Assembly (NCBI GenBank): GCA_963836185.1
Contig: CAWIIQ010000001.1
Location: 896,001 to 960,000, forward strand
DNA: 64,000 nt
Origin: Candidatus Krumholzibacteriia bacterium
GTDB taxonomy: Bacteria; Krumholzibacteriota; Krumholzibacteriia; Krumholzibacteriales; Krumholzibacteriaceae
Direction of reading: 5' to 3'
Shown piece after piece: positions 26,001 to 33,147 of this stretch. Below the pieces are notes generated by a model that searched no databases, had not been told where the DNA came from, and saw only the letters and a list, made by a program, of their open reading frames with translations. The translations under genes were made by a program, and so were the position numbers. Numbering within the stretch: the stretch's first letter is position 1; every line of letters begins with the position of its first letter.

Positions 26001-26074
26001 TGGAGAGTCGTCCAACGGTAGGACAGCTGACTCTGGATCAGCCGATGGGGGTTCGAGTCCTCCCTCTCCAGCCA
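26001..26074 (+). tRNA. tRNA-Gln(CTG)
   Basis: Cloverleaf; GCTGA-CT CTG GA-TCAGC anticodon arm; U1:A72; 3' CCA. Confidence 0.95.
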
Positions 26075-26085
26075 TTTTTTATCAA

Positions 26086-26160
26086 GGCCCCTTAGTCTAG
26101 TGGTCAGGACGCATGGTTCTCAGCCATGAATCAGGGGTTCGACTCCCCTAGGGGCTACCA
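26086..26160 (+). tRNA. tRNA-Glu(CTC)
   Basis: Cloverleaf; CATGG-TT CTC AG-CCATG anticodon arm; 3' CCA. Confidence 0.95.
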
Positions 26161-26165
26161 GATAG

Positions 26166-26201
26166 AAGAACCGGCCGCCGTAATGGCAGCCGGTTCTTTT
26201 T
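26166..26201. terminator. Probable bidirectional intrinsic terminator
   Basis: AAGAACCGGC...GCCGGTTCTT inverted repeat followed by a T-run, lying between convergent units. Confidence 0.7.
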
Positions 26202-26219
26202 CTGTCAGCAAGTCCCTCA

Positions 26220-26236
26220 AGCGGCGGACCGCCGCT
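26220..26236 (-). promoter_or_regulatory. Candidate SECIS hairpin for the FmdB-like gene
   Basis: AGCGGCG-GTC-CGCCGCT, starting at +16 after the UGA. Confidence 0.6.
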
Positions 26237-26425
26237 CTATCTGAAGGGGTTTCAGCCGAAACCACCCGACGGGGCGCATCCCGAAGCGGAGCTGGCGAAG
26301 ATAGAGAATTCCCTCTCTACGTCGTCGCTTTCGCAGTCGGGGCAGGAGACTCTCTCCGTGGAGTTCATCACGAGCTCCTCGAAGCGCTTCCCGCACGTCT
26401 CGCATCTGTATTCGTACAGCGGCAT
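26237..26425 (-). CDS. FmdB-family zinc-ribbon protein, candidate selenoprotein (57 aa to UGA at 26254-26252; 62 aa with Sec)
   Basis: MPLYEYRCETCGKRFEELVMNSTERVSCPDCESDDVEREFSIFASSASGCAPSGGFG-UGA-NPFR-TAG; GAAGGAG RBS; absent from the ORF track. Confidence 0.85.
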
Positions 26426-26593
26426 CTATTCTCCTTCGGTTTTCTTTTCTTCCTTCTTTTCTTTATCTTCATACCGGTCCCCGGTATCGCACGTTCCGCT
26501 CATTCAGGTGGGAACGCCCATGCGGGGCAGCACTATCCTCATTATCACGATCCATATCGCAAGAAACAATAAAAGCTGCAGGATCTCACCCAT
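26426..26593 (-). CDS. Small single-TM membrane protein, candidate selenoprotein (UxxxxC)
   Basis: MGEILQLLLFLAIWIVIMRIVLPRMGVPT-UGA-MSGTCDTGDRYEDKEKKEEKKTEGE-TAG; the read-through ORF exactly fills the gap between DUF302 and the next ATG. Confidence 0.75.
26471..26487 (-). promoter_or_regulatory. Candidate SECIS hairpin for the small membrane protein gene
   Basis: ATACCGG-GGA-CCGGTAT, starting at +17 after the in-frame UGA (26506-26504). Confidence 0.6.
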
Positions 26594-26596
26594 TCA

Positions 26597-26983
26597 CTAC
26601 ACTCCCTCTATTACATCGGCCAGCTTGTCGCGGACAATCGCTCCGACCCCCGCGAGGGCCTCGTTTCCTACCACGCTCATCGCGGACATCGGATCTATAG
26701 CGGATACCTCGACGCTTCCATCGTCGGTCTCGCGGACGATGACGTTGCATGGAAGCATAAGGCCCACTCTGTCCTCGGCCTTGAGCGTCTCGTACGCGAG
26801 CGGAGGATTACAGGCTCCGAGTATCCTGTACTGCGTAAACTCGACATCGAGCTTTTTCTTGAGCACCGCTTTGACATCTATGTCGGTCAGTACGCCGAAT
26901 CCCTGCTTCCCGAGCTCCTCGATAGTCTTCGAGACCGCTTCGTCAAAACCCAGTCCGACTCTCTTCGATATATGATAACTCAT
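26597..26983 (-). CDS. DUF302 domain protein
   Basis: GFGVLTDIDV, YRILGACNPPLA, GLMLPCNVIV. Confidence 0.92.
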   Translation of the reverse strand: MSYHISKRVGLGFDEAVSKTIEELGKQGFGVLTDIDVKAVLKKKLDVEFTQYRILGACNPPLAYETLKAEDRVGLMLPCNVIVRETDDGSVEVSAIDPMSAMSVVGNEALAGVGAIVRDKLADVIEGV

Positions 26984-27396
26984 TCCGTGTCGCCTCCGGC
27001 CAGCGGCTGATCGGCAGGGGATATACCGGGATCCCCCGCCGGTCGCCGTGGATAAAAACTGCGCAGCGCGTCCAGTCGATCTGTTGCTGTGTCTTCGATC
27101 GATCTGCAGACCATTCGGCAGATATCCTCAGGAAGGGTGCTGGTAAGGCTGTAGAAGATCTTCCTGTGGTCCCGCCGGGTACTGACCAGCTCGTGCCGTC
27201 GCAGTATACTCAGATGTTTCGAAACGCAGGCCTGGCCGTATCCTGTCTCATCGACGATGCAGGAGACGTTTTTTTCTCCGCCGCACAGGCAATGGATTAT
27301 GGCGAGCCTCGCCGGGTCCGACATAGCCCTGAGCCTGCCTGCAATCGCGTCGAAAGTGCCGTTATCGTTTTTCGCGGCCAAGTCTGCTCCTTTCAT
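26980..27396 (-). CDS. ArsR/SmtB-family transcriptional repressor, Cys-rich
   Basis: AMSDPARLAI, VSKHLSILR, IFYSL; Cys residues in HCLC and DICRMVC. Confidence 0.9.
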   Translation of the reverse strand: MKGADLAAKNDNGTFDAIAGRLRAMSDPARLAIIHCLCGGEKNVSCIVDETGYGQACVSKHLSILRRHELVSTRRDHRKIFYSLTSTLPEDICRMVCRSIEDTATDRLDALRSFYPRRPAGDPGISPADQPLAGGDTE

Positions 27397-27436
27397 ATTC
27401 TCATATATTAATATAACAATATGAAAGGTATGTCAA
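27389..27436 (-). promoter_or_regulatory. sigma70 promoter overlapped by a putative ArsR operator
   Basis: Minus-strand TTGACA (27436-27431) with an AT-rich -10; perfect 11-bp inverted repeat CCTTTCATATT (27389-27399) / AATATGAAAGG (27418-27428) around the palindrome TATATTAATATA. Confidence 0.65.
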
Positions 27437-27451
27437 GGAGTTATTTCAGGG

Positions 27452-28783
27452 TCAGATCCGGATCTTTTTCCAGCCGCCCTCGCGGAACTTCCATGCCATC
27501 ATCAGCGAGAAGACTATCATGTAGAGGTAGAGGCCGATCCAGGCAATCGTCATGTTCCCGCCGTAGTGCTCGACCGCCAGCCAGGAGAAGGGGATCATCA
27601 CCATCCATATGCAGACCATCTCGCAGATCATCACGTACATGGTGCTGCCGGCCCCCTGGAGGGTGCGCGAGAGGACGATCCCGACTCCGTCGATGAGCTG
27701 GAAGGCTCCGAGCAGCCTGAACGATGTGACTCCGAGTTCTATCGTACCCGGGGAATCCGAGAAGATACCCATGATCTGACGCGGGAAGAACATGAAGAGG
27801 GTGCCTGTTATTCCCATCAGCACCGAGCCGATAAGGGCCGATCTCCATCCGTAACGTGACGCGAGTCTCTCGTTTCCCTCGCCGAGACTCCTGCCGACCA
27901 GTGTCGCGGAGGCGACCCCGACCGCCATCCCTATCATGAACGAGAGGTTAAAGGCCTTGAATATGATATTGCTGATCGCCAGCTCCTTTACTCCGATCCT
28001 TCCGATGAAACTCAGGAAGACGAGGAACCCGACGATCGATACGCTCTGCGCCGCCCTCGGCGCCGATATGCGGACTATCGTGCGTACGATCTCAGAAGAG
28101 AGCAGGCCTGCCGCGCGGCGGACTGTTCCGCGGAGGATCAGCCGGTGGACGAGGATGAGGTAGAGGGCCAGGCCGATCACGGTAGAGATCACTGATGCAA
28201 GCGCCGCTCCCCGGACTTCCAGCCGGGGGAACCCGAGCTTGCCGAATATCAGGACCCAGTTAAGCAGTATGTTGAGCAGGTTGATGACTATCGATACGGT
28301 CATATCGATCCTCACCCGCGCGACTCCGAATACGAATCCCCTCAATGTGAATATCATGACCATCGTAAAGAGGCCGAGGAGCCTGATCTCGAGGTAAGGG
28401 ATCCCCGCGGCGACGACTTCCGCGTCGCGGGACAAAGCCGAGAATATGCGCGGCGCGAGGAAAAATCCCGCCGCTGACGCGGCGAGTCCCACGACAAGGG
28501 CGAGCAGGAGAGAATTCGCCACGATCCGGGGAAACTCCCCGGGACGGTTTTCACCGAGGCGCCTGGAGGTCAGCGCCTGCGTACCGATGTTGAGGGCCCC
28601 GAATACAAGCACCGCGACGAGTATGAAGAAAGAGCCGAGCCCCACCGATGCCAGCGCGACGTCACCCAGTCTTCCGACCATGGCCGTGTCGACGATGTTC
28701 AGAGTAGTGTGGGAGATCATGCCCGCTACGATGGGCAGGGCCAGCCGCACTATTTCCCTGTTCATATCGGATCCGGTCTTCAT
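27452..28783 (-). CDS. MATE family efflux transporter
   Basis: LALPI, DTAMVGRLG, NILLNWVLIFG..G.P.L.V.GAA, about 12 TM segments. Confidence 0.92.
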   Translation of the reverse strand: MKTGSDMNREIVRLALPIVAGMISHTTLNIVDTAMVGRLGDVALASVGLGSFFILVAVLVFGALNIGTQALTSRRLGENRPGEFPRIVANSLLLALVVGLAASAAGFFLAPRIFSALSRDAEVVAAGIPYLEIRLLGLFTMVMIFTLRGFVFGVARVRIDMTVSIVINLLNILLNWVLIFGKLGFPRLEVRGAALASVISTVIGLALYLILVHRLILRGTVRRAAGLLSSEIVRTIVRISAPRAAQSVSIVGFLVFLSFIGRIGVKELAISNIIFKAFNLSFMIGMAVGVASATLVGRSLGEGNERLASRYGWRSALIGSVLMGITGTLFMFFPRQIMGIFSDSPGTIELGVTSFRLLGAFQLIDGVGIVLSRTLQGAGSTMYVMICEMVCIWMVMIPFSWLAVEHYGGNMTIAWIGLYLYMIVFSLMMAWKFREGGWKKIRI

Positions 28784-28876: not shown

Positions 28877-29404
28877 TCATCTGTGGATAGTCTTGATCCC
28901 GCCCCAGGTGCTCTGTTCGGTCGAGGTAAGTACGGGAAGCGTGATGGAGTAGACCCACAACTCTCCCGCGGTACTGGTAGTAAGCCTTGCCTTGTACACG
29001 GGGCCGTACAGCCCGAGGATGTCTCCGCCGAGTGAGAGGATGTTGCAGCTGCAGCTTCCGAATCCGGCGCCGGTGAAATCGAAGGGGATCACCTGCTGCT
29101 CGCTGGTCAGTATGTTCGTCACGGTCAACTCGAGATGGTACTGCACGCTGTCTTCGCCCCTGGTGGCCATCCGGATCTCGTAGGTGCCGTAAGATTGTGG
29201 AGAGATATCGTACTCGACCCATTCGCCGGGGAAATCGAGGCCTGTCATCCATCCGATAAGGTTGGAGCCTACCGGATCGCCAGCTATGTCGAGGCTGTCG
29301 GTGTATTCGCTGGCGTATAGGAGGATATCCTGCGACGATGCCGCCTGCGGAAATACCAGCGACAACGTGCTAAGGGTGATGATTGCAGCGACCCTGAACT
29401 TCAT
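28877..29404 (-). CDS. Secreted protein, CBM6/35-like, with C-terminal STWGGIK motif
   Basis: Signal peptide MKFRVAAIITLSTLSLVFPQAASS; GEWVEY..G.Y motif; ends TEQSTWGGIKTIHR. Confidence 0.7.
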   Translation of the reverse strand: MKFRVAAIITLSTLSLVFPQAASSQDILLYASEYTDSLDIAGDPVGSNLIGWMTGLDFPGEWVEYDISPQSYGTYEIRMATRGEDSVQYHLELTVTNILTSEQQVIPFDFTGAGFGSCSCNILSLGGDILGLYGPVYKARLTTSTAGELWVYSITLPVLTSTEQSTWGGIKTIHR

Positions 29405-32703: not shown

Positions 32704-33147
32704 ATGGCCGCGAAGGCAAAGACCAAGAAGAAAGCCAAGGCTAAGACCAAGAGAAAGGTCAAAGTCAAGGCTAAGAAGAAGCCGAAGGCCAAGACCAAGA
32801 AGAAGGTCAAGGCCAAGGCCAAGAAGAAGCCGAAGGCTAAAGCCAAAAAGAAGGCTAAAGCCAAGAAGAAGGTAAAGGCCAAAGCCAAGAAGAAGCCGAA
32901 GGCTAAAGCCAAGAAGAAGGTCAAGGCCAAAGCTAAGAAGAAGCCGAAGGCTAAGGCCAAGAAGAAGGTCAAGGCAAAGAAGAAGCCGAAGGCTAAAGCC
33001 AAGAAGAAGGTCAAAGCCAAAGCTAAGAAGAAGCCGAAGGCTAAGGCCAAGAAGAAGGCTAAAGCTAAGCCCAAGACCAAGGCTAAAGCTAAGCCCAAGA
33101 CCAAGGCCAAAGCCAAGAAGAAGACCAAAGCTAAGAAGAAAAAATAG
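32704..33147 (+). CDS. Histone H1-like Lys/Ala-rich nucleoid protein
   Basis: Almost entirely K/A/P/V/T; repeated KAKAKKK(V/P) units; own promoter and terminator. Confidence 0.85.
   Translation: MAAKAKTKKKAKAKTKRKVKVKAKKKPKAKTKKKVKAKAKKKPKAKAKKKAKAKKKVKAKAKKKPKAKAKKKVKAKAKKKPKAKAKKKVKAKKKPKAKAKKKVKAKAKKKPKAKAKKKAKAKPKTKAKAKPKTKAKAKKKTKAKKKK

Follow-up and report, generated by a model that had tools for sequence, protein, structure and literature searches.

A conserved pair of predicted selenoproteins, a small membrane peptide and an FmdB-type zinc ribbon with selenocysteine in its tail, beside an ArsR-family regulator in Krumholzibacteriia

Several described families and operons come close to the locus considered here, a set of four small genes in a 64,000-nt stretch of DNA from Candidatus Krumholzibacteriia bacterium (assembly GCA_963836185.1, contig CAWIIQ010000001.1, positions 896,001-960,000; this whole stretch is called the window, and its own numbering is used). 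All four lie on the minus strand, in the order arsR, DUF302 gene, peptide gene, fmdB, and the last two each carry an in-frame UGA that we read as selenocysteine (Sec). Data S1 of deep-Sep already includes the peptide family among known predicted selenoproteins, with entries that have one hydrophobic helix, the pattern W-x7-LP(K/R)xG(I/V)xT-U-x4-C and a charged tail; by-eye comparison finds the same pattern in the window peptide. Within the passages of these sources that we cite, Data S1 gives the family a label only, with no partner, regulator or function, the label does not recur in the deep-Sep main text or Table S1, and the 119-family table of PMC13188914 holds no such family. A selenoprotein of the FmdB family (TIGR02605) has also been catalogued; its Sec occupies the first zinc knuckle (UxxU) according to the relevant passages of PMC2398784 and PMC13188914, whereas in the window FmdB the knuckles are all Cys and the predicted Sec lies in the tail; a search of the deep-Sep supplements for tail motifs gave no FmdB entry. 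The Tso/SAO operons, as the corresponding part of PMC13188914 presents them, resemble the window operon in combining several small selenoprotein genes of dark function, and TsoR (NF045707) is of ArsR/SmtB type in NCBIfam. They differ in that no Tso or Sao model matches the peptide or FmdB and the window ArsR scores below the TsoR cut-off. The literature searched yielded no description of the peptide-FmdB pair, of an FmdB with tail Sec or of the window operon, and the ArsR subtype is in no published list that we found. The original prediction of an undescribed module does not hold for the peptide family itself and, as far as these searches go, applies to the pairing, the tail-Sec FmdB and the ArsR subtype. 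We do not regard the locus as a new type of system, and the function given below is one that we infer.

Both UGA codons almost certainly specify selenocysteine, as had been proposed for peptide and zinc ribbon alike; conserved TGA codons and selenocysteine insertion sequence (SECIS) hairpins bear this out in both genes, and Cys homologues do so additionally for the peptide. The peptide gene (26426..26593) encodes a single-pass membrane peptide of 55 aa, with the predicted Sec30 (UGA at 26504..26506) in a U-x4-C motif just past the helix. Of 41 related genomes, 30 have the peptide, with a single TGA in every case, and the UGA is kept at all 30 loci; across the phylum it is present in 138 of 201 genomes, with TGA in 139 of 143 match rows and three of the other four ending before that codon. 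Profile searches placed it in 63 of 151 genomes from the phylum to which Geomobilimonas belongs and in 9 of 121 from that of a planctomycete, while a pattern requiring TGA found at least 120 loci in Desulfobacterota, Planctomycetota, Acidobacteriota, KSB1, Armatimonadota, Chloroflexota and others. P23, T29, U/C30 and C35 are invariant, and conservation continues beyond the UGA at C35 and R40. Among the best 150 of 631 homologues, the residue at the Sec position is Cys in 100, Trp in 22, the end of the protein in 18 and something else in 8, the motif being unparsed in 2; Trp and Gly at this position presumably represent TGA under alternative gene-calling codes. A true TGY (Cys) codon stands at the Sec position in 55 metagenome loci.

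The bacterial SECIS model, as given in the passage concerned of PMC13188914, comprises a loop of 3-9 nt with a G, placed 16-37 nt after the UGA. At a threshold of -7.5 kcal/mol or lower, the hairpins of both window genes agree with it: that of the peptide (26471..26487, minus strand; 7-bp stem, loop 23 nt past the UGA) folds at -7.7 kcal/mol and that of FmdB (26219..26237, minus strand; lying beyond the true stop, its loop 22 nt from the UGA) at -12.4 kcal/mol. Within the order, 23 of 30 peptide loci and 27 of 30 FmdB loci pass, compared with 82 of the 1326 ordinary TGA stops that served as control, and among more distant peptide loci 23/40 and 65/119 do so. Over 27 of the 30 peptide loci (three close relatives were left out), 92% of stem cells are paired and 32 are changed on both sides, a covariation that 0 of 500 shuffles equalled and that relatedness and coding constraint inflate. 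The window genome has tRNA-Sec, an intact selA and a selD with its own in-frame TGA. Its selB is frameshifted and in pieces, and these shifts we regard as assembly errors because genes that we take from their translations to be rpoB, rpoC, fusA and one tuf copy are likewise split in the assembly (G000 C1:47900-88600) and selB is whole in five of five relatives tested; a real loss of selB was rejected on the same grounds. The indel errors of this assembly call for caution with any broken gene in it. Since nearly the whole phylum has selA (193 of 201 genomes), a test of its co-occurrence with the peptide had no power.

The hydropathy of the peptide peaks at 2.7 over residues 4-22, and basic residues average 2.0 after the helix against 0.14 before it, so that by the positive-inside rule the U30-x4-C35 pair is predicted to face the cytoplasm. 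The peptide matches no NCBIfam or Pfam model above cut-off, a word-indexed protein search returned one shortened relative only, and for a Cys homologue the Atlas gave only an unnamed cluster, at 0.85. Longer, fused forms were not found in the search made, which is weak evidence on the point. Two in-frame joins of peptide and thioredoxin (L111:2501-2971 and P0154) were discounted as fusions; the thioredoxin keeps its own start, and the joins may reflect the chance loss of a stop.

The FmdB-family zinc ribbon (26237..26425; TIGR02605, 60.7 bits against a cut-off of 31.3) is 62 aa long if its UGA at 26252..26254 is read through to the next stop, a TAG at 26239-26237, which sets the gene end at 26237. 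Its four knuckle cysteines (C8, C11, C28 and C31) are invariant and form two CxxC knuckles, accompanied by a Ser-rich stretch and by a Gly/Ser tail that contains C50 and the predicted Sec58; the Sec lies 3-5 residues from the end, with the SECIS beyond the stop. Every copy beside the peptide has TGA as its first tail codon, namely 30/30 in the order, 36/36 further out in the phylum, 17/17 in other phyla (the script parsed 17 of 18 profile hits) and 8/8 in a fresh sample of Desulfobacterota, while the stop that follows 2-4 codons later varies (TGA 18, TAG 8 and TAA 4 of 30). Database FmdB records end at the tail TGA, and of the 120 homologues listed, 118 finish in a Gly/Ser/Thr-type tail like the cut form and two in Cys-rich tails of uncertain register. 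The tail Sec predicted here is a new Sec position in a known family. In design, although not in sequence, the tail is like the KCU-star and UXX-star families, which place Sec on a flexible C-terminal arm, and like thioredoxin reductase, whose C-terminal Sec we take to be comparable; none of the star-family models matches FmdB. Solved homologues of FmdB beyond generic zinc fingers were not found.

What is conserved at the locus is the pair of peptide and FmdB-Sec, and the four-gene module is not conserved. Linkage was assessed in the order, in 40 hits picked to spread over genera in the more distant part of the phylum, in 79 of 120 loci of other phyla (40 were left out for short flanks and one as a same-genus duplicate) and in the fresh Desulfobacterota sample; at loci of high guanine-plus-cytosine content, gene calling and clustering were swamped by shadow frames and were replaced by profile searches. 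An FmdB with tail TGA adjoins the peptide at 30/30, 36/40, 18/79 and 8/30 of these loci, respectively, and the pair occurs in both gene orders. ArsR stands beside the pair at 22 of the 30 loci of the order (three of the eight loci lacking it are at contig ends) and at 6 of the 40 more distant ones, all of one family and in the order peptide-arsR-fmdB. The DUF302 gene (26597..26983; 128 aa, PF03625, 89.5 bits, above the gathering threshold) fares differently from what a conserved module would imply: among the seven genomes of the genus three have it intact, three retain remnants and one shows a clean absence, and it is at 0/23 other loci of the order and 0/40 elsewhere in the phylum. It is a recurring accessory, genus-level here and decaying in sister species. 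DUF302 genes do occur in 16 of 41 relatives, where three fetched from other genomes had no cassette genes nearby, and at three unrelated locations (L176, L290, and L239/L269, a single locus seen twice) one adjoins the peptide. The protein is a homologue of the solved TT1751/1j3m, and its CNP and LPC motifs are common to 1j3m and 1q9u. The MATE family transporter gene upstream (27452..28783, minus strand; TIGR00797, 232 bits, above cut-off), which the original prediction had left undecided, is probably a family-level syntenic neighbour and not part of the core: it is found at 19/30 loci of the order and 0/40 further out, and a separate promoter lies between it and arsR. Neither was accepted as a core member (0/63 phylum loci outside the genus for DUF302, 0/40 for MATE). 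At one locus (L321), in a genome 97% complete, arsR is followed directly by a tail-Sec fmdB and the peptide gene is missing.

At the window itself, the coordinates confirm four tightly coupled genes behind a TTGACA box, with an ATGA overlap between arsR and the DUF302 gene, a 3-nt gap before the peptide gene and a 0-nt gap before fmdB; the HCLC, DICRMVC, GACNP and LPCN Cys motifs reported earlier are all present in the translations. The -35 hexamer TTGACA occupies 27431..27436 (minus strand), and the -10 element is ambiguous, either TATATT at 15-nt spacing or TATTAA at 17. An 11-bp perfect inverted repeat (27389..27428, arms 27418-27428 and 27389-27399) is present as predicted, its hairpin having a z-score of -6.2 with 0 of 200 shuffles as good. 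It does not overlap the TTGACA box as had been stated but begins 2 nt downstream, and it spans the -10 region and part of the ribosome-binding site. Its inner part is a 28-bp array of four ATAT boxes with 8-nt period and dyad symmetry (27395..27422), which lies over the -10 region and which resembles an ArsR operator, perhaps of general type. The array lies upstream of arsR and after the TTGAC box, and a TTGAC-like box precedes it at most of the 22 arsR loci. In a matrix built from 17 arsR loci (five same-genus loci were dropped), leave-one-out scores reach at least 26 bits in 16, the seventeenth being mis-registered at 13 bits, and the window site is the best in the whole genome at 39.5 bits; only two others in the genome exceed 18 bits, and both likewise lie ahead of operons containing arsR. 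Of five loci that lack arsR and have enough upstream DNA, three lack the array. The conservation of this operator candidate argues for the self-regulation by ArsR that was originally suggested.

The ArsR protein (26980..27381; 133 aa, TTG start, NF033788, 69 bits against a cut-off of 55) lacks the Cys positions of the persulfide sensors BigR and SqrR, in contrast to the analogy first drawn. BigR, SqrR and HlyU share its fold, are among its nearest solved structures and have Cys in the helix 2 region and in helix 5, as it does; an alpha2/alpha5 Cys pair is common to all known persulfide sensors according to the pertinent sections of PMC10054925 and PMC11672702. The helix-2 Cys, however, aligns in both the BigR and SqrR structures with His30 of the window ArsR, where 0 of 22 orthologues have Cys, and the adjacent C31 of HCLC occurs in only 7 of 22. 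By an offset that relies on the helix-5 residue numbering we assume for BigR and SqrR, the partner Cys is expected near residue 96, where it is found in 0/22 orthologues (3/22 have one at 97) and is absent from the window protein. The BigR model scores 49.8 bits against a cut-off of 155 and the TsoR model 47.7 against 115; both are below. With neither Cys position matched, the BigR/SqrR filing was rejected. What the 22 orthologues do conserve is C88 (22/22), C33 (21/22), C92 (17/22) and H30 (16/22), C31, C41 and C52 being essentially genus-specific; judging by the fold, the end of helix 2 with C33 may come close to the start of helix 5 with C88 and C92, a single-sequence fold model (predicted local distance difference test, 49) being too poor to use. 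None of the metal-site motifs alpha3 CxC, alpha5 DxHx10Hx2(H/E) and alpha5 CCx5C, as listed in the part of PMC11672702 concerned, is conserved in these orthologues. ArsR proteins beside the peptide in other lineages likewise include none that passes the BigR or TsoR cut-offs.

The second-best operator match in the window genome precedes an operon (G000 C1:1509246-1512500) with an ArsR that has Cys at the BigR helix-2 position and with genes that, from their translations, we take to be TusA-like, MvhD-like and HdrA-like; as a candidate for persulfide sensing it is better placed than the window operon. The third match (G000 C3:223669-224372) precedes an arsR-like gene and a thioredoxin. In the largest family of the phylum (L059-L089), the 300 nt upstream of the peptide contain a recurring GTCAAT-containing motif, which in some loci is flanked by ATATT...AATAT 28 nt apart.

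Functional clues come mainly from genes beside the peptide in other phyla. The 79 loci analysed there include neighbours of the families ArsR (16), thioredoxin-fold (14), extracytoplasmic function sigma factor (11), zinc anti-sigma (10), YgaP-like (4), OsmC (3) and rhodanese (2), and at least one tested family is present at 49 of them, compared with 0.8% of random sites in the window genome. Loci with the Cys form, which were new to the neighbour profiles but are redundant, have a tested neighbour in 50 of 55 cases (YgaP-like 31, anti-sigma 26, thioredoxin 17, CcdA 11) and are mostly arranged as anti-sigma/peptide/YgaP-like/CydA-like or thioredoxin/peptide/CcdA, and one has a lactamase-rhodanese fusion on one side and a TauE exporter on the other. 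Further neighbours outside the phylum are TlpA/Prx-like proteins, CcdA, DsrE, rubrerythrin and hybrid cluster protein. One recurring operon type (L228, L249, L251, L268) combines a zinc anti-sigma-like gene, the Cys-form peptide, a YgaP-like gene, a cytochrome bd subunit I-like protein fused with a c-type cytochrome domain, and an unassigned membrane protein. At another locus (L073:3421-3984, minus strand) a CMD/AhpD-like gene downstream of the peptide appears as two open reading frames, possibly split at a Sec codon.

Based on this collective evidence, we give about an even chance to the cassette being a small thiol/selenol redox unit, ArsR-repressed here and induced by oxidative or reactive-sulfur stress. 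Of the thiol/redox response originally proposed, the redox character is upheld by the neighbours in other lineages, and DUF302 membership and BigR/SqrR-type sensing are not. To proceed as envisaged, an ArsR dimer would bind the 4xATAT array over the -10 region and be released once the thiols of C33, C88 and C92 are modified. The peptide would sit N-out and C-in, with its U30-x4-C35 pair at the cytoplasmic membrane surface, where it would cycle between selenolate/thiol and selenenylsulfide, or else take up sulfane sulfur, and would be re-reduced by thioredoxin. In FmdB, the four-Cys knuckles would be the zinc scaffold, while the redox role would fall to the flexible C50...U58 tail, acting as a swinging arm. 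DUF302 and MATE are taken as lineage-specific additions. Tentatively, this may extend to a widespread but overlooked two-selenoprotein relay of anaerobes, in which the Sec-tipped zinc ribbon passes electrons or sulfane sulfur to the membrane U-x4-C peptide on the cytoplasmic side and which, in the order of the window, is switched by an undescribed ArsR class with a C33/C88/C92 triad and the 4xATAT operator; we consider it possible and no stronger than that. Our commitment to the redox-stress unit goes no further than even because the neighbour contrast is partly circular and because only 11/30 and 2/9 loci of fresh Sec-form samples have tested neighbours, most of the 11 having only FmdB. The circularity arises as the neighbour families were selected with the loci already in view and profiled from the same 79 loci; in addition, a single genome served as control and many of the loci are closely related. 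Other observations weigh in the same direction. In the phylum of the window itself, a thioredoxin or sulfurtransferase stands beside the pair at 0 of 40 loci, and the largest family has no ArsR nearby at 30 of 30 loci examined, which there suggests a standing role more than a stress island. One of the five arsR-less loci retains a strong operator match (36.6 bits) and another a partial one (15.2 bits), with no ArsR orthologue found elsewhere in the genomes of those five. In other phyla, the ArsR proteins adjoining the peptide belong to unrelated subtypes, with 20-32% identity and Cys at other positions. The pair is also separable: of ten genomes, one that is near-complete has arsR-fmdB with no peptide and two have both genes apart, no tail-type FmdB being parsed in the other seven. 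Metal-related genes (NikR, ArsP-HMA, ZnuA, DUF364) were met among the neighbours as well.

These last genes bear on a metal or metalloid unit, in which ArsR would sense As(III), Hg, Cd or Cu through C33/C88/C92 and the selenoproteins would bind or pass the ion through Se/S donors. Three conserved Cys could provide trigonal coordination as in As(III) sensors (described in part of PMC11672702), several small selenoproteins are tied to metal ligation (in sections of PMC13188914), and NikR, an ArsP permease with HMA domain, ZnuA and DUF364 among the neighbours, together with MATE upstream, would fit; yet the ArsR sequence is devoid of the known metal-site motifs, within the phylum the locus has no conserved metal exporter or reductase, and thiol-redox neighbours outnumber metal ones, leaving this a minority prospect that is nonetheless worth entertaining. 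Rather unlikely, in our estimate, is a standing housekeeping pair, a small membrane subunit or a cofactor- or selenium-handling factor that would be near-universal in the phylum and captured by various stress promoters. In the largest family, 82 of 87 genomes have the peptide in one copy, and 30 of 30 loci examined there are without ArsR. Neighbours are variable, none of those tested appears at 19 of the 30 fresh Desulfobacterota loci, and at planctomycete-type loci a cytochrome bd subunit I-like gene follows the Cys form. A housekeeping role sits poorly with the failure to find the peptide in two whole families having selA (0/7 and 0/23) and with the lack of any single partner complex common to the lineages. 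The earlier picture of a four-member relay, with DUF302 integral and a BigR/SqrR-type persulfide sensor in control, draws on the tight gene coupling at the window, on DUF302 beside the peptide in three unrelated places and on DUF302 in sox clusters of sulfur oxidisers (noted in the portion of PMC5037610 considered). Set against the DUF302 counts, the unmatched sensor Cys positions and the BigR score, it is improbable, and as a conserved unit already largely refuted. Hardly credible, finally, is that the UGA codons are real stops, giving a 29-aa membrane peptide with a second tiny reading frame (UGA-AUG) and a 57-aa FmdB. An ATG does follow the peptide UGA at 24/30 loci of the order, database records end at the UGA and selB is frameshifted in the assembly, but a non-start codon follows at 30/40 and 46/120 other loci, Cys homologues continue past this position uninterrupted, TAA or TAG never replaces the codon whereas later stops vary, SECIS hairpins are present and the selB shifts look like sequence errors.

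Protein databases either truncate or miss both genes of the pair. Found in about two thirds of the phylum genomes and in the sampled share given above of the Geobacter-group phylum, the peptide may rank among the commoner selenoproteins of sediment anaerobes, and in the FmdB family, whose function is dark, the tail-Sec form would supply a reactive residue open to testing. The ArsR subtype and its defined operator candidate offer a direct route to the inducer. Carriers of the peptide are in culture (Geomobilimonas luticola, Pelotalea chapellei, Geobacter sp. OR-1), which makes ordinary genetics possible.

Downstream of the operon, a terminator-like hairpin with T-rich tails on both strands (26166..26198, folding z -8.4) separates it from convergent genes for tRNA-Gln (26001-26074) and tRNA-Glu (26086-26160; both plus strand). 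The hairpin claimed earlier as a terminator shared with the tRNA genes is thus present, its sharing being only by convergence as the tRNAs are on the opposite strand. A simple consensus scan of the window listed neither the arsR promoter nor this terminator, and a scan against Rfam matched the tRNAs only. RNA runs contained relatives at small shares (0.04-0.06) and in short contig pieces, and were uninformative on expression or operon structure. Elsewhere in the window, a 175-aa protein (28877-29404, minus strand) with a signal-like N-terminus belongs to no Pfam or NCBIfam family and has a C-terminal TWGGIK motif that we take to be common in secreted proteins of this lineage, and a 147-aa open reading frame (32704-33147, plus strand) is Lys/Ala-rich and repetitive, with a histone-like composition.

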